DNA from: a virus
Taxonomy: Duplodnaviria > Heunggongvirae > Uroviricota > Caudoviricetes
Virus record (IMG/VR): IMGVR_UViG_3300045988_154997
Coordinates: 1 to 64,000 of that record
Direction: 5' to 3' (one strand)
Length of the DNA stretch: 64,000 bases
Position numbers and translations under genes: made by a program. The notes under the pieces were generated by a model. That model did no database searches. It saw nothing but the letters and a program-made list of their open reading frames with translations, and was not told the DNA's origin. Positions 5,073 through 45,094 of this stretch are shown piece after piece. Every line of letters begins with the position of its first letter. Position 1 is the stretch's first letter.

Positions 5073-5666
5073 CTAAGCAGCCTTCTTTGATGGTCTTTTT
5101 TTCCTGATCACATTCGCAGGATCATACCCTCCCAGACTTTTCATGACGTCCAAAGGGATCTTGCTTATAGAGTGCCCAGCGTCCTGACAGAATCCTCGAA
5201 AAACAACGAGCATACTGCCACCTGGGTTGATGTTTACTTCTACCTGACCCAGATTGACGTCAGGCTCGACAAACGCTACGCGGCCACCAGACAGAATAAT
5301 CGTCTCATTCGCACACTCTGTTGCACGCTCATACCACTTTGTATCTAGGGATTGAGGAATTAGCATCACTGTTGTAACTCCGCGAGCCTGCTCACGTATA
5401 GCCGCATCAATCCAGGGGGAGATTTTGGAGTAGGGTGGATTGAGGAAGGCAATTGTACCTGGCTGTCCCCATTCAGATTTCAAAGCATCACGCTCAACGC
5501 CTATGAAATTAGGCAGCTTTGCATTGTCCTTGTTGCAGGCAACGTCAACATCAAATGTCACTCCAAGATAACGTTGAATGGCAGAAAACAGCCAGTCAGG
5601 TGTTCTCCAGAGGTCACGAAGAGAGTTGTCGCGCTTTCGCTGTTTGATTTTTTCGGCTGCAATCAT
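5073..5666 (-). CDS. DNA N6-adenine methyltransferase (phage Dam-like)
   Basis: FLNPPYS catalytic motif (NPPY) and DVACNKDNAKLPNF region typical of phage N6-adenine MTases. Confidence 0.8.
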   Translation of the reverse strand: MIAAEKIKQRKRDNSLRDLWRTPDWLFSAIQRYLGVTFDVDVACNKDNAKLPNFIGVERDALKSEWGQPGTIAFLNPPYSKISPWIDAAIREQARGVTTVMLIPQSLDTKWYERATECANETIILSGGRVAFVEPDVNLGQVEVNINPGGSMLVVFRGFCQDAGHSISKIPLDVMKSLGGYDPANVIRKKRPSKKAA

Positions 5667-5676
5667 CTTCTTTCTC

Positions 5677-5697
5677 GATAGGTAAGTAAATACCTAT
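5677..5697. promoter_or_regulatory. recurrent roughly 21-bp palindromic element 'GATAGGTAAGTAAATACCTAT' (representative copy, 10 nt upstream of the methyltransferase start codon)
   Basis: Same element found by eye at about 3468, 10516, 15233, 19918, 23419, 28892, 35407, 41429, 45064, 47555, 53691, 59922. Confidence 0.4.
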
Positions 5698-5724
5698 TTT
5701 TGCATTTGATTTTATGTCTGGCAA

Positions 5725-5777
5725 TCAAATAAAACGCGCCAGAAATGCAAACGAGAAGCTCTCTGGCGCGTTTTTGT
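5725..5777. terminator. hairpin terminator (arms ACGCGCCAG / CTGGCGCGT) with T-runs on both sides; bidirectional
   Basis: aaaACGCGCCAGa...tCTGGCGCGTttttg read directly; downstream of the 5850..6659 gene. Confidence 0.5.
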
Positions 5778-5849
5778 GGTGCTGGGTATGTGATTGGCTT
5801 ACCCAGCACTATAAAGCTCTCTATGGGCTTTATTTTCAGTAGGGGAACG

Positions 5850-6659
5850 TCATCCAATAGTGTACTCCGCGACAAACTTCTTAACGATCGGTGATTCTTC
5901 GTTCAATGTTAGATTTCCACCGTCTCTAACGGCAATTCCTGTCGCTGGAAATACAGCCATCATTTGCCCAGCCTGAGTTGACGCAGTGTTAAGCGGATAC
6001 GGTTTTTCTGGATTGCTCATTAAAGCAATCTTAATACTATTACTTGTAGCCTTCTTTTCTGTGAGAAGGTGTCTCATGGAAATTACCGTGTAAACACTAA
6101 TATCTGGACCTCCGCTAAACCAATTAAGAAGGTTTAATATCTTATCCTTTGCTTTGACAGGCGCGTTATCGTAAGCGTCTAAGAAAATATCTTTTTCTAA
6201 GCCCGCTTTATTGAAAAACGAATCATCTTTATCACTTAAAGTAAAACGAGGACCTCTTGCAGTACGAGCTTTTTTATTTGTATTGCTATCATTTGACTGT
6301 TGAACTTTTAATTCATCATTAACCTCAACACACTCTTCAACCTCAATAAATCCCAATTGTTCTGGCTCGTTTTCGGCAGCTTCAACACTTTCAGCGTTAA
6401 TTACGTTTATAGGCTCATGCGCTAACTCCAACTCATTTAAAGCAGAGCTGAAATCACCTGCTTTTTCTTCATTGAACAGTTCTTCGGCAACATCATCAGA
6501 ACTCATGGCTACGCCAGCATCTAGGCCGAGCAGCAGATCGTCAATATCATCAGTATTTTCAACCTGTGCAGCTTTTTTTACTGGTTCATCAAGTGATTGC
6601 AACATGGCTGTCAGCTCGTCCAGATCATCATTTGTCATTACATTTTCAACCGAACTCAT
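5850..6659 (-). CDS. hypothetical acidic protein
   Basis: 269-aa ORF, strongly acidic N-terminal half. Confidence 0.5.
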   Translation of the reverse strand: MSSVENVMTNDDLDELTAMLQSLDEPVKKAAQVENTDDIDDLLLGLDAGVAMSSDDVAEELFNEEKAGDFSSALNELELAHEPINVINAESVEAAENEPEQLGFIEVEECVEVNDELKVQQSNDSNTNKKARTARGPRFTLSDKDDSFFNKAGLEKDIFLDAYDNAPVKAKDKILNLLNWFSGGPDISVYTVISMRHLLTEKKATSNSIKIALMSNPEKPYPLNTASTQAGQMMAVFPATGIAVRDGGNLTLNEESPIVKKFVAEYTIG

Positions 6660-35345: not shown

Positions 35346-35440
35346 GCGTTTTTCCTTTGTTTTCTAATGAGCTTTCAACTTCTTATATAAATATACCATC
35401 AAATATCGTAAGTGATTACTTATCATTAAGGCTATTCTAA

Positions 35441-42369: not shown

Positions 42370-43581
42370 GTGTCAATATTTTTAAGCGAAAAGGAAATGC
42401 AAAATTGGATAATTGACAAATTATCTGATCAAGATGGATTATATAATTCAATCATCAATATTGATAAATTAAATGAATTTAATCCGAAAAGACCCGAAGA
42501 GAAAAAAATTAAGGAGAGTTATCAGTTTTGTTTAAAGAACATAACATTGTTACATTTAATGACAGATGATGAGAATATCTCAGCAACAAAATCTGAGATA
42601 TTAAGACCTGATGTCGTTGCTTATTCAACAGAGAATGAATCCTTAGTTCTTATTGAGTTAAAAAATTTTTCAACACCAACAAGGGAAGCTGGAACTGAGC
42701 TAGTGGCATATGCTGCGGAACTAAAAAGTTACTTGTCATACTTGTCTGATGGAGATATTACCAATGTACTTATATCACCTGACTGGCCACCTTTGGTTAG
42801 ACACTTTATTTTTAATATGATCGTGTGGCAGAAGAAAAACTTTCTATGTTTAGAACCTTGCTATGATTTACAAGGTAACGTATCACTTACTCCTTTAGAT
42901 ATTAATAAATTAGTTATTGCGGAAGAAGCACTCAAGTTCTCATTTCGTCATCTTGGCGGGTTTCATATATGTTTGTATGATGATGAAATGTATAATCAAC
43001 CGACTTCCACTTCTCGTTTACATTCGAAATTGAATGTTATTAAAGCCAGCATGGCAAAAATGTCCTCAGACGGTGAAAAGACTAATAGCCATGGGTTTGC
43101 TATTTTATGTAGAAATTTGAACGAGAGAACTTTAGCACCATATACGATTACTCTAGTTAATGTTTCTGCGTTTTCTTCCATAGAGCGATACTTTCATTCG
43201 CCACAAATATCCAATGCTTCTCAACTCCCTAGAATAGGACAAAAAATTTATGACATTTACACTCATTACCAACCATCAGGTTTTGGGGCATCAATGTCGA
43301 AAATTTACAATTCTGGGAGGGCATATTTAGAAAAAATTAATTGCAAGCCGCGGATCGAGGTTATAGACACCTGGGATGTATTGCAAGTACATACACATGC
43401 GCCTTATATGGAAATGGTTCATATTGAAACGTGGGGAGTTTTTAAAGAAAAATTGATTGAAGGTCTAAATGAATGTTATGAGGATGAATATTACACACCT
43501 GATTTTAACGATGTAGATTTTTGCATGGTGTGTATTGAATCCTTAATTGACCAGAATTATGAATTTATAAAACTTTTTTGA
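42370..43581 (+). CDS. PD-(D/E)xK nuclease-like protein (candidate defence cassette, gene 2)
   Basis: GTG start with GGGAG RBS; N-proximal RPDVVAYSTENESLVLIELK fits D...E-x-K restriction-endonuclease-like motif; rest unrecognised. Confidence 0.45.
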   Translation: MSIFLSEKEMQNWIIDKLSDQDGLYNSIINIDKLNEFNPKRPEEKKIKESYQFCLKNITLLHLMTDDENISATKSEILRPDVVAYSTENESLVLIELKNFSTPTREAGTELVAYAAELKSYLSYLSDGDITNVLISPDWPPLVRHFIFNMIVWQKKNFLCLEPCYDLQGNVSLTPLDINKLVIAEEALKFSFRHLGGFHICLYDDEMYNQPTSTSRLHSKLNVIKASMAKMSSDGEKTNSHGFAILCRNLNERTLAPYTITLVNVSAFSSIERYFHSPQISNASQLPRIGQKIYDIYTHYQPSGFGASMSKIYNSGRAYLEKINCKPRIEVIDTWDVLQVHTHAPYMEMVHIETWGVFKEKLIEGLNECYEDEYYTPDFNDVDFCMVCIESLIDQNYEFIKLF

Positions 43582-43584
43582 AGA

Positions 43585-43608
43585 AAAGGGGCCGAAGCCC
43601 CTTTGAAT
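43585..43608. terminator. bidirectional hairpin terminator (GGGGC-cgaa-GCCCC) closing both the plus-strand cassette and the minus-strand tRNA operon
   Basis: Read directly; T-run TTTTCTTCAAAAAA on minus strand, weaker T-run on plus. Confidence 0.6.
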
Positions 43609-43679
43609 ATTGCGCTGAAAAAAAGTGTTGCTAGGATGTTAGCAAGCTATGGTTAAGAACGTCTGCCGTAATTGTCAAT

Positions 43680-43757
43680 CACAGCGTTGAGCGGTCTGGT
43701 TTATGTTAGCGGAGTCTTAATCGAGTTGATTAAAAGGCCAAACCGCTCAACGCTGTG
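43680..43757. repeat. perfect 16-bp inverted repeat (CACAGCGTTGAGCGGT / ACCGCTCAACGCTGTG) with 46-nt loop, abutting the tRNA-Ser 3' end
   Basis: Read directly. Confidence 0.6.
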
Positions 43758-43759
43758 TC

Positions 43760-43846
43760 TGGCGGAGAGTAATGGAATCGAACCATCATCGTTTGCACAA
43801 TGGGACGATTTTCAAGACCGCTTGAGCACCATGCTCCCTACTCTCC
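43760..43846 (-). tRNA. tRNA-Ser (anticodon UGA), type II (long variable arm)
   Basis: Acceptor GGAGAGT/ACTCTCC, discriminator G, encoded CCA; anticodon loop CTTGAAA; T-arm GATGG-TTCGATT-CCATT; D-arm non-canonical (A8), so needs tRNAscan confirmation. Confidence 0.6.
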
Positions 43847-44070
43847 GGCCGTTGTGGTGGCCGGTACTGAATCTCCGGCATACGGTGCAGCCAATTAGGA
43901 CTACGGACGATCACCGCTCGCGAAAGGGAAGATTTGCGGCCGCATTTCCCTAACATCCAAGAAAGCTATCGCATCAGTCTGCGAATCCACCACAACGGTA
44001 AGATCACTACCTTTCGACCAGTCATTGTGCACATGAACGACGATTAACCGTAATGATCTTATCGTTGTAT

Positions 44071-44146
44071 TGGTGCCGGTTAACGGACTCGAACCGCTGA
44101 CATCCTGCTTACAAGGCAGGCGCTCTACCAACTGAGCTAAACCGGC
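44071..44146 (-). tRNA. tRNA-Thr (anticodon UGU)
   Basis: GCCGGTT-TA-GCTC-AGTTGGTA-GAGC-G-CCTGC-CTTGTAA-GCAGG-ATGTC-AGCGG-TTCGAGT-CCGTT-AACCGGC-A-CCA; canonical cloverleaf, 76 nt. Confidence 0.85.
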
Positions 44147-44150
44147 AATT

Positions 44151-44237
44151 TGGTGGGGAGTGATGGAGTCGAACCACCCGAGTCGCAATGACAGTAGATT
44201 TACAGTCTGTCCCGCTACCTCTACGGACTAACTCCCC
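44151..44237 (-). tRNA. tRNA-Tyr (anticodon GUA), type II
   Basis: Acceptor GGGGAGT/ACTCCCC, discriminator A, CCA; D-stem GTCC/GGAC; anticodon loop CTGTAAA; T-arm GGTGG-TTCGACT-CCATC; overall similar to E. coli tRNA-Tyr. Confidence 0.75.
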
Positions 44238-44242
44238 TAAAT

Positions 44243-44317
44243 TGGCGATGGTGGGTGGATTCGAACCACCGACCAGTTGGTTAACAGCCAACTGCTCTAC
44301 CGCTGAGCTACACCATC
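44243..44317 (-). tRNA. tRNA-Asn (anticodon GUU)
   Basis: GATGGTG-TA-GCTC-AGCGGTA-GAGC-A-GTTGG-CTGTTAA-CCAAC-TGGTC-GGTGG-TTCGAAT-CCACC-CACCATC-G-CCA; canonical, 75 nt. Confidence 0.85.
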
Positions 44318-44581
44318 AATTCAGCACTGCCAGTATTTATTACTCAACAGTGCCAATCGCGGCGGTGTTAGTTTCTGCCAGGAAACACACCGCTACTGGC
44401 ACTTTCCGTTAGTGCCAGACGTTTTCGACTTCGCTCAATAGAAGGCAAAATCTTTAAGTAGATGATGTTTCTGAGGACAGCACCTACTTTGTAATTTATA
44501 CAATGTGATGTATGGAATCATTTGTTGTGAAAACAGGCACTAATGGCAACAGTGGTTAAACCTATACAACAATCCTGTCTT

Positions 44582-44705
44582 CACAACGTTGAGGCCACTA
44601 CTCCGATTGAATGTTTGCCCAACATGTTACATATCAACGCTCGCCGGTATCTCTGTGAATAGAACCTTAGAATTGATAAAAATGTAATGGCCTCAACGTT
44701 GTGTG
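44582..44705. repeat. perfect 16-bp inverted repeat (CACAACGTTGAGGCCA) with about 92-nt loop, upstream of the tRNA cluster; arms similar to the repeat at 43680..43757
   Basis: Read directly. Confidence 0.6.
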
Positions 44706-44781
44706 CTGGCTAACCATACCAGCCGGGCTACGTCGCCGCTTTTTAACCCAGTATAAACGACATAATTGAACAAAATGACGT

Positions 44782-44857
44782 AACAGGATGGGCGGTCATT
44801 GGCTAAGAATCCGGGAGTCGTATATGAGTTGAAAATATACTGACCGCCCATTCTGTT
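44782..44857. repeat. 17-bp inverted repeat (AACAGGATGGGCGGTCA / TGACCGCCCATTCTGTT, 1 mismatch) with about 42-nt loop
   Basis: Read directly; followed by a 9-bp hairpin GGAGGGAAC-tctcat-GTTCCCTCC at 44866..44889. Confidence 0.55.
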
Positions 44858-45094
44858 ACTTCATCGGAGGGAACTCTCATGTTCCCTCCTGCGTTCTGCA
44901 ATCACACTCGCTCAGTGTGTCCCATTTCGGTAACGAGGCTGGAAACTGACCTCGCTGGTGTTTGGCTTATTAGGCTACTGCCAGATAGACTTCTTCGTTT
45001 GCACTTGTATTTAAGTTCAAACAGTCGCGTCTCAACGAAAACAAAGTCATCTTATACATAAAAGATAGGTAAGTAAATACTTATTATTGTATTT

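Follow-up and report, generated by a model that had tools for sequence, protein, structure and literature searches.

Between the tRNA-Thr and tRNA-Ser genes of a minus-strand transfer RNA (tRNA) array in IMG/VR virus record IMGVR_UViG_3300045988_154997, of which positions 1 to 64,000 were analysed and are referred to here as the window, there is a gap of 224 nt (43847-44070) that carries a structured RNA of two parts: a long irregular hairpin, module B, and behind it a multi-branched element of 150 nt, module A. Module A belongs to the same family as sRNA-17, a small RNA mapped in Escherichia coli K1, and the two modules together form a cassette that is present, absent or tandemly repeated in related phages and phage-plasmids. 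On balance, the gap would seem to yield a stable small RNA that is cut out by tRNA-processing enzymes and acts as an independent molecule. An earlier note on this DNA had remarked on the gap, for which it could fold no cloverleaf, within a 1.5-kb non-coding region (43585-45094), and had listed additional small RNAs among the possible explanations of the inverted repeats around it. That suggestion is borne out for the gap itself, which is a covariation-supported structured RNA on the tRNA strand, homologous to the mapped sRNA-17. The findings that the note had named as contrary to its view, an unstructured gap and repeats that are not conserved in relatives, are not what is seen.

Structure and covariation of the gap RNA

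There are two inverted repeats within the gap, both overlooked in the earlier note: 43849-43860 with 43987-43998, which is 12 bp long and perfect, and 43987-44010 with 44050-44073, with arms of 24 nt that are 83% complementary. The folding of each hairpin of the region was compared with that of 200 shuffled sequences, and each is far more stable than its shuffles (z -4.6 to -9.1), none of the 200 being as stable. The parts of the two modules are as follows.

43849-43998, minus strand: module A, a 150-nt multi-branched RNA, recognized from its fold, covariation against the copy in phage BUCT_49532, covariance-model matches and covariation across the family
43987-43998 with 43849-43860, minus strand: P1, the closing stem of module A, 12 bp
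43969-43984, minus strand: P2 hairpin of module A, UCGCA-GACUGA-UGCGA, with the loop GACUGA
43880-43965, minus strand: lineage-specific centre of module A, two covarying hairpins
43861-43879, minus strand: P5 hairpin of module A, (G)CCGG-AGAUUCAGUA-CCGG(C), with the 10-nt loop AGAUUCAGUA
43974-43978 (ACUGA) with 43866-43870 (UCAGU), minus strand: kissing pairs between the P2 loop and the P5 loop
43987-44073, minus strand: module B, a long irregular hairpin with 24-nt arms (z -4.6)

In this architecture P1 is stacked directly on P5, the loop of P5 pairs with the loop of P2, and a variable domain lies between P2 and P5. RNAalifold, applied to the window copy and the copy in BUCT_49532 (75% identical), predicts P1, the 5' hairpin P2, two central hairpins and the 3' hairpin P5. 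Between these two copies 7 of 41 pairs have compensatory changes, with a slightly better fit for the minus than for the plus strand. Throughout module A, module B and the leader hairpins, pairs that turn into G·U do so on the tRNA strand alone, and module A is therefore placed on that strand.

An exact 15-mer from the P5/P1 segment found at least 120 viral loci, and a covariance model, R1, built from the window, P7, D6 and BUCT_49532, matches more than 60 of 100 of these viral loci over lengths of 62-150 nt; here, as in a second scan with the P2 stem as anchor and the loop left free, the loci are those among the matches listed. The loci of both scans supplied 43 distinct cores with a 9-nt P5 loop for a family alignment, in which 93% of cells are paired and 15 of the 26 pairs change on both sides. 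None of 500 shuffles reaches any of the observed measures, and slid controls are 25-48% paired. Columns 3-11 of P1 are paired across the family, with 3-11 compensatory cells in each of six of the outer pairs. Covariation in the outer part of P1 is free, as in GAUGCGGUG/CACCGCAUC and GAAGUAGGUG/CACCUACUUC, and the 3' partner of P1 always lies directly behind the conserved P5. The kissing helix, P2 loop GCUGA against P5 loop UCAGC, is complementary in 99.5% of cells, and there are compensatory variants of it, GUCGA/UCGAC in locus L075 and ACUGA/UCAGU in the window and in loci L071 and L176. The anchors lay in P2 or in P5/P1, and extraction required that P1 and P5 pair; the kissing helix was not used for selection. 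Covariation supports all four helices of module A.

The window copy has each of the features by which the family is recognized. Its P1 reads CCGUUGUGGUGG-AU...CCACCACAACGG, with P5 directly before CCACCACAACGG, and it keeps the inner P1 pairs GUG/CAC and a joiner of 2-3 nt (AAU in the family, AU here). P2 has the 5-bp stem and the 6-nt loop G(G/A)CUGA, with a U-A pair in place of the consensus G-C, which is a compensatory change relative to BUCT_49532. P5 has GCCGG/CCGGC abutting the 3' strand of P1, and its loop is complementary to that of P2. The scan tool had called P2 an intrinsic terminator (UCGCAGACUGAUGCGA+UAGCUUUCUU), which is rejected, as the U-rich tail is not kept across the family.

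Module B includes in its 5' base the CCA end of tRNA-Thr, while its 3' arm overlaps the 5' strand of P1. In Klebsiella phages, P1 and CMS-2020a there are homologues of B beside A elements, with compensatory changes at 8 of the 28 pairs. In the B hairpins of late leaders (L012, L096, L233, L127, L247) the 3' arm is often UGCUCUUUCC, close to the rrn and lambda boxA, UGCUCUUUAA, but base-paired; module B of the window carries GAUCUUACC in that place.

Relationship to sRNA-17

sRNA-17 is a 193-nt RNA of E. coli K1 strain RS218, encoded in an mEp460-like prophage and characterized by rapid amplification of cDNA ends (RACE) and Northern blot (PMC7719688). The same paper describes repression by ArcA and phenotypes of the deletion, and reports no homologue in Rfam (PMC7719688). 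Its equivalence to module A was set through the primer table of that paper and the mEp460 locus. The primers and the Northern probe in the supplement (PMC7719688) fall on the A element. The 5' end taken from the primers, CGTTGTGGTGAATGCGCAGGCTGATGCGCGAAA, lies at CGTTGTGGTGAATGCGCAGGCTGATGCGC, a C that precedes the first P1 pair by one base, and the 3' end is the terminator GCGGTACCAG...CTGGTACCGCTCTTTT, so that the ends of sRNA-17 are those of an A element plus terminator, as in mEp460 and in E. coli prophages. R1 matches the sRNA-17 locus of mEp460 at 55.1 bits (E 2e-13). Judged by sequence and predicted fold, module A is thus a member of the sRNA-17 family. As the 5' end of sRNA-17 is about 280 nt downstream of a putative pL, read from the mEp460 sequence, it may be a processed end.

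In Rfam 15 there is no match to the gap or to the hairpins at E values up to 10, nor, at gathering score, to the A elements of 12 related loci. Ribozymes, riboswitches, DicF, C4, IsrK and 6S were rejected as candidates, having no Rfam match in the region (E up to 10) or at the A elements of the 12 loci. An STnc100 match in L186 and C4/isrK matches in L129 fall away from the A elements. A literature search with the exact P2 and P5 motif sequences found no paper.

An exchangeable two-part cassette

In phage Cyrano, which is 96% identical to the window over the 1.5-kb region, the gap is reduced to Thr-ACACAATT-Ser, 8 nt between the tRNAs, with neither B nor A. In Escherichia phage CMS-2020a (strain SCU-175), at 97.6% identity over the region, there are two B-A tandems between Thr and Ser, and in P1 there are three between trnT and tciA. 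These differences show that B-A is a two-part RNA cassette, horizontally exchanged. Short ACAAC direct repeats are found at the joints where the cassette is present or absent in relatives. P7 and D6 match gap positions 1-162 at 97.5% identity, within a spacer of 468 nt, while Klebsiella siphophages match either gap positions 5-160 (BUCT_49532, 75% identity) or positions of about 120-222. The gap sequence is found in 178 plasmid records, and the window copy is not unique, identical or near-identical copies being present in many plasmids.

In the spacer between trnT and the last B-A of P7 (L002) and P1 (L247) there is a remnant of a tRNA-Thr 3' end, CCGTAACCGGCAC, joined to a second B hairpin, and in P1 and D6 the T-arm-like sequence AGGGTTCGAATCCCT lies within the first B hairpin. 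The remnant and the T-arm-like sequence are traces of past duplication and decay of units made up of a tRNA and a cassette.

Distribution of the family

The family is found in lambdoid prophages, in P1, P7 and D6, in SSU5-like plasmids, in Klebsiella phages and in some Betaproteobacteria. The A element is always co-oriented with local transcription and always in untranslated sequence, and 45 of 60 loci with A have no tRNA nearby. In tRNA arrays it always runs in the same direction as the tRNAs, the next of which can begin 2-8 nt behind it (window, L005, L024, L071). After pL it adjoins CI-like repressor genes (6 of 10 upstream neighbours sampled), ahead of yfdP/Q/R-type genes, and in lambdoid late leaders it lies directly after tR', downstream of Q, with a B hairpin in front. 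Some copies have an intrinsic terminator 4-10 nt behind them. In loci L174 and L220 the A element is in the N leader, between a separate boxB of lambda/P22 type and an N-like gene, 25 nt before the gene. The lambda N-leader hairpin (z -4.6) has flanks and a closing stem, GCUUUGGGGUGUG...CACACC-CCAAAGC, in common with these A elements.

Sequences matching the conserved 5' block of the element are present in 713 of 5,426 complete E. coli genomes (~13%), none of them annotated. R1 also matches E. coli prophages, P1 and CMS-2020a. In P1 (L247, NC_005856) the interval from trnT to tciA in the leader of the ban operon, 5500-6210, carries the three B-A tandems on the sense strand, where R1 matches 5815-5920 at 43 bits and 6076-6203 at 18 bits; the first B-A copy, 5582-5643, is degenerate. 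Two annotated P1 open reading frames (ORFs), plp ("putative lipoprotein") and upl, run antisense over these tandems and may be spurious.

A scan with an anchor of 15 specified bases across 596 Gb of genome sequence returned mostly chance matches. Only 14 matches, with a GGCUGA or AGCUGA loop, were verified by R1, in 14 bacterial genomes that include Betaproteobacteria. Model-verified A elements outside the Enterobacterales were found in Massilia, Gallionella, Chitiniphilus and Pandoraea and in a Magnetococcales genome bin (L253, L292, L302, L305, L284), and with these members in the Betaproteobacteria and Magnetococcales the family is not confined to enterobacterial phages.

In lambda, directly after tR' (L127, 985-1150), one can see by eye a hairpin of B type, GCACAACAGGUAAGAGC...GCUCUUUCCGUUGUGC, with a closed element, GUUGUGCUG...CAGCACAAC, behind it; for this pair the covariance model gives only a chance-level score. 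The lambda N-leader hairpin (L248, 352-518) has a closing stem and flanks in common with the A elements of other lambdoid phages. By eye, the pair after tR' and the N-leader hairpin look like divergent relatives of the cassette. The lambda N coding sequence in RefSeq (L248, NC_001416, 38-439) starts at 35438 and is 133 aa long, whereas the classical ATG of N is at ~35360; as annotated, the coding sequence overruns the N-leader hairpin.

A gene for an HNH endonuclease on the same strand is present immediately upstream of an A element in a Jedunavirus (L004, BUCT_49532, 3000-3795) and immediately downstream of one in L096 (11657-12324). These adjoining HNH genes hint that some copies of A travel with homing-endonuclease cassettes.

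The tRNA operon and its other hairpins

By its identities over the 1.5-kb region to CMS-2020a and Cyrano, and by the 79-83% (approximately) identity of the right half of that region to Salmonella phage SSU5 and Klebsiella phage-plasmids, the window is an SSU5-like phage-plasmid of E. coli. The whole region is most likely taken up by a single minus-strand tRNA operon, with its untranslated leader, its body and its trailer. The minus-strand genes upstream of it encode DNA ligase and small proteins of unknown function, and a convergent plus-strand ORF (42370-43581) ends at 43581. The remaining features of the region are these.

43586-43606, minus strand: intrinsic terminator at the operon end, GGGGC-UUCG-GCCCC followed by UUUUCUUC, read directly from the sequence
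43680-43757, minus strand: trailer hairpin (repeat 1), arms 43680-43699 and 43738-43757, 20 nt, 95% complementary
43760-43846, minus strand: tRNA-Ser(UGA), called by ARAGORN (tga); type II, CCA encoded
44071-44146, minus strand: tRNA-Thr(UGU), called by ARAGORN (tgt) and Rfam
44151-44237, minus strand: tRNA-Tyr(GUA), called by ARAGORN (gta) and Rfam
44243-44317, minus strand: tRNA-Asn(GUU), called by ARAGORN (gtt) and Rfam
44524-44587, minus strand: closed hairpin, GUUGUGAAGACAGG...CCUGUUUUCACAAC (z -4.8)
44582-44703, minus strand: leader hairpin (repeat 2), arms 44582-44601 and 44684-44703, 20 nt, 95% complementary
44775-44864, minus strand: leader hairpin (repeat 3), arms 44775-44798 and 44841-44864, 24 nt, 92% complementary
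44866-44889, minus strand: 9-bp hairpin, GGAGGGAAC / GUUCCCUCC (z -5.6)
44880-45060, minus strand: leader segment of ~180 nt, near-invariant in phage-plasmids of E. coli, Salmonella (SSU5) and Klebsiella (pJN2-26)

The four tRNA genes that the earlier note had read are exactly the four that ARAGORN finds. There is no ARAGORN call in 43847-44070 and no match there to the Rfam tRNA clan (E up to 10), in agreement with the note's failure to fold a cloverleaf in the gap. The note's doubt about tRNA-Ser was also justified: the D-arm is atypical (4-bp stem, 5-nt loop), there is an A at position 8 and a G at 73, the general tRNA model fails, and the best Rfam score is that of the tRNA-Sec model, 42.3 bits against a gathering score of 47. 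The isotype of the D6 homologue was likewise, according to the annotators of phage D6, not called by tRNAscan-SE. The same tRNA-Ser gene is present in P7, D6 and many viral contigs, usually directly behind an A element. In Cyrano a "hypothetical protein", CYRAN_40 (L001, 3089-3301), is annotated antisense to tRNA-Ser and the trailer hairpin, probably as an artefact. tRNA-Tyr is missing from Cyrano, P7, D6 and P1, and in SSU5 and pJN2-26 tRNA-Asn is the sole tRNA at the corresponding locus.

The three long-loop inverted repeats that the note described are real and slightly longer than it gave them, with arms of 20, 20 and 24 nt, and they rank first to third among the long-loop inverted repeats of the 64-kb window. 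The likeness that it saw between arms comes from a common motif, CACAACGTTGAG, which at 0-1 mismatch is confined to the 1.5-kb region. The trailer hairpin has a 20-bp stem with the base CACAGCGUUGAG and an inner 8-bp hairpin (-41.2 kcal/mol, z -9.1); it is identical in Cyrano and CMS-2020a, and the base of its stem is common to P7. The leader hairpin 44582-44703 has a 20-bp stem with the base CACAACGUUGAG and a structured loop of 82 nt (z -6.5), and in SSU5 and pJN2-26 its upper stem has compensatory changes and its loop is of variable length. The leader hairpin 44775-44864, with a 42-nt loop (z -7.3), keeps its arms in all four SSU5-like genomes while the loop varies, and its G·U variation fits the minus strand. 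The 9-bp hairpin that the note placed behind it is present at 44866-44889, with four pairs showing compensatory changes in SSU5 and pJN2-26. Directly 3' of the leader hairpin 44582-44703 is the closed hairpin 44524-44587, missed by the note and partly kept in SSU5 and pJN2-26, which mirrors the layout of the gap, B and then a closed element, but without a P2/P5 core. The stems are kept by compensatory changes and G·U pairs, which points to RNA rather than protein-bound DNA sites. The note's suggestion of processing structures probably holds for the repeats of the leader and trailer: they are conserved, covarying RNA hairpins whose most likely role is that of signals for processing or stability.

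Cyrano, SSU5 and pJN2-26 all keep the leader, 44318-45094, and within it, at 44880-45060, alignment columns ~57-216 are almost all invariant against ~79% identity around them. No Rfam family matches this segment. A plus-strand ORF of 60 aa (44879-45061) is open in the window and in Cyrano, while in SSU5 and pJN2-26 indels shift its frame and in pJN2-26 there is no start codon; the segment is on this account probably non-coding, and may be a promoter or operator region, an RNA, or a replication or partition signal. Just upstream of it, at ~45045-45075, there is a weak candidate σ70-like promoter, TTTACT-17-TAAGAT, seen by eye with 8 of 12 positions matching and scoring under the threshold of the scan tool. 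Compared with the ban leader of P1 and the late and pL leaders of lambda, the SSU5-type leader (44318-45094) shows no similarity. The terminator at 43586-43606 also closes the convergent ORF 42370-43581 and is kept in Cyrano; the scan tool does not list it, our guess being that the tool extends the stem into the U-run.

Possible functions of the cassette

Module A would be transcribed together with the tRNAs of the operon. RNase P would cut at the 5' end of tRNA-Ser, 2 nt after P1, and 3'-end maturation of tRNA-Thr would act at the base of B, of which the Thr CCA is a part. RNase III may in addition cut the long stem of B; the lengths of B (24-nt arms), of P1 (12 bp with P5 stacked on it) and of the leader and trailer hairpins (20-24 bp) are compatible with such cleavage. 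These cuts would release a stable RNA of ~150-220 nt, which would then act independently as a regulator or a decoy, its kissing-loop scaffold presenting the variable centre. An independent product is favoured by that scaffold with its exchangeable centre, by the units in which A is followed by a terminator, and by the accumulation and phenotypes of sRNA-17.

Several points weigh against an independent RNA. Accumulation is established for sRNA-17 alone and for no tRNA-embedded copy. The targets of sRNA-17 are unknown (PMC7873438), which leaves action in trans unestablished for the family; that review, which mentions an sRNA encoded by phage mEp460, gives the mechanism as unknown as well (PMC7873438). 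The centre of the window copy is itself predicted to be base-paired, with no obvious single-stranded seed. P1 and P5 together make 14-17 bp, more than the 12-bp acceptor/T stack that RNase P measures, which leaves processing at the 5' side of A unexplained. In the structural evidence, selection bias is absent only from the kissing helix and from the identity of the P1 partner. Finally, a position 25 nt before an N-like gene, in the 5' untranslated region of an mRNA, or after tR', also fits a purely cis-acting role.

Such a cis-acting role is the main rival and is kept alive by the N-leader and late-leader contexts, but it is rather less than probable. Modules A and B and the long hairpins would be processing or stability signals only, with stems that are cut by RNase III or that block exonucleases or Rho, so separating and stabilising the flanking tRNAs and mRNAs, and the excised piece would have no function of its own. 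The lambda N-leader hairpin, whose flanks and stem the A elements of L174 and L220 share between boxB and the N-like gene, is reportedly an RNase III site that controls N translation. The B hairpins have stems of 20-24 bp with internal loops, like phage RNase III sites, and A and B are always in untranslated stretches of long operons. A simple cleavage signal, however, needs no kissing-loop core kept from the Enterobacterales to the Betaproteobacteria; the units of A followed by a terminator resemble genes for an RNA product; and sRNA-17 accumulates and has deletion phenotypes (PMC7719688).

A wider version of the independent-RNA reading, in which A is a class of tRNA-shaped scaffolds, with P5 resembling a T arm, P2 a D arm and an exchangeable centre between them, excised by the host's tRNA- and rRNA-processing enzymes and acting in trans as regulator or decoy, is put forward tentatively and is unlikely as a whole. 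Excision would then take place from tRNA operons, pL leaders, late leaders and the P1 ban leader alike, and the target of a decoy would be a host RNA-binding or tRNA-targeting factor. In a less likely version the conserved junction and pseudoknot would form a new ribozyme that cleaves itself to set its 5' end.

Two other readings are disfavoured and very improbable. In the first, A would be a processive antiterminator like put of HK022, in which the nascent RNA binds RNA polymerase and enables it to pass terminators. Many copies do lie just downstream of pL beside a CI-like repressor gene, with a terminator behind them in several, and the yfdP/Q/R early-left phages lack N and are suspected to have a put-type mechanism (PMC12315714). 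However, there is no similarity in sequence or model comparison to HK022 put or to the annotated putL-like RNA of HK639, and R1 has no match in the early region of HK022 or at the HK639 putL-like RNA. HK022 put consists of two open stem-loops in a V shape (PMC9378689), unlike A, which is a closed junction with kissing loops. The element also coexists with N and boxB (L174, L220) and with Q downstream of tR', where its function would be redundant. The promoter-proximal position upstream of terminators is that of some relatives but not of the window copy, behind which come tRNA-Ser, a hairpin, the last terminator and the convergent ORF, so that read-through would yield only antisense RNA. A lambdoid nut site was also considered and rejected: there is a separate boxB upstream in L174 and L220, and one P2-type hairpin per locus examined.

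In the second, the repeats would work as DNA, either as terminal repeats like those of miniature inverted-repeat transposable elements (MITEs) or as the recombination or attachment sites that the earlier note had suggested, shuffling tRNA cassettes. The presence and absence of the cassette with ACAAC direct repeats at the joints, the varying copy number of B-A tandems, the HNH endonuclease gene beside some copies and the arm motif common to several hairpins would all fit. The arms covary, though, with G·U on the transcribed strand only, where repeats bound by a transposase or recombinase would keep their sequence instead; copies are always oriented along local transcription, the complementarity of the two distant loops covaries, and one member, sRNA-17, is a mapped RNA. 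The ACAAC repeats, which mark cassette joints, are the only DNA-level feature; the note's suggestion of attachment sites is not supported as a function.

That the gap holds decayed tRNA genes with no present function, the note's pseudo-tRNAs, is scarcely credible: the gap is inside a tRNA array, the order of helices in A resembles a cloverleaf, and P1, P7 and D6 carry tRNA debris in the homologous spacer (the Thr 3' remnant and AGGGTTCGAATCCCT), but 43847-44070 has no cloverleaf, ARAGORN call (transfer-messenger RNA included) or Rfam match, 45 of the 60 family loci are without tRNAs, and there is strong purifying selection and covariation on a fold that is not that of a tRNA.

Significance

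The element is widespread, has no Rfam family and no annotation, and is almost uncharacterised. Related elements are present in some of the best-studied phages, detected by the model in P1 and P7 and, as divergent look-alikes seen by eye only, in lambda. sRNA-17, which is linked to virulence, gains a fold and a family. The tRNA arrays of temperate phages and phage-plasmids can carry structured RNAs other than tRNAs as exchangeable cassettes. Were the tRNA-shaped reading true, there would be a large class of phage RNAs so far unrecognised as a family. The processing route, the kissing loop and possible partners are directly testable.

Comparison with known systems

The tRNA cluster of T4 offers an analogy of arrangement only. 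Species 1 and 2 of T4 (RNA C and D) are small stable RNAs other than tRNAs that are encoded among the phage tRNA genes, co-transcribed with these and released by tRNA processing, the fate proposed here for modules B and A. T4 is a virulent myovirus, and no relation in sequence or structure to A is expected. HK022 put and the HK639 putL-like RNA resemble A in being structured phage RNAs, of 70-130 nt, and lie just downstream of early promoters, like many A copies.

The lambda N-leader hairpin has the same position, flanks and long closing stem as the A elements of L174 and L220. Its branched interior is different and lacks the kissing core of P2 and P5, and there is no match to it by the covariance model; the window copy of A, unlike this hairpin, is not in an N leader.

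The likeness of A to a tRNA is one of layout. Both have, in order, a closing stem, a 5' hairpin, a centre and a 3' hairpin stacked on the closing stem; the D- and T-loops of tRNA interact, as do the P2 and P5 loops of A; and A is co-transcribed with tRNAs. However, A lacks an anticodon arm of fixed size and any T-loop or D-loop consensus, and tRNA finders do not detect it. Its loop-loop contact consists of 5-6 Watson-Crick pairs, and its stacked helix is 14-17 bp, not 12.

The closest known RNA is sRNA-17, which shares with the window copy P1 (GUUGUGGUG/CACCACAAC in sRNA-17), P2 (GCGCA-GGCUGA-UGCGC), P5 (GCCGG-AGAUCAGCA-CCGG(U/C)) and the complementary loops. sRNA-17, which belongs to the early-left region of a lambdoid prophage, ends at an intrinsic terminator of its own; the window copy lacks one and lies between two tRNAs, behind a B hairpin. 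In sequence P2 and P5 differ, the window copy having UCGCA-GACUGA-UGCGA as P2 and a P5 loop of 10 nt, and the central domains of the two are unrelated. The paper on sRNA-17 (PMC7719688) describes neither a family, nor the pseudoknot, nor a wider distribution. The copy embedded in the tRNA operon, with its different central domain, is a new version of the sRNA-17 kind.

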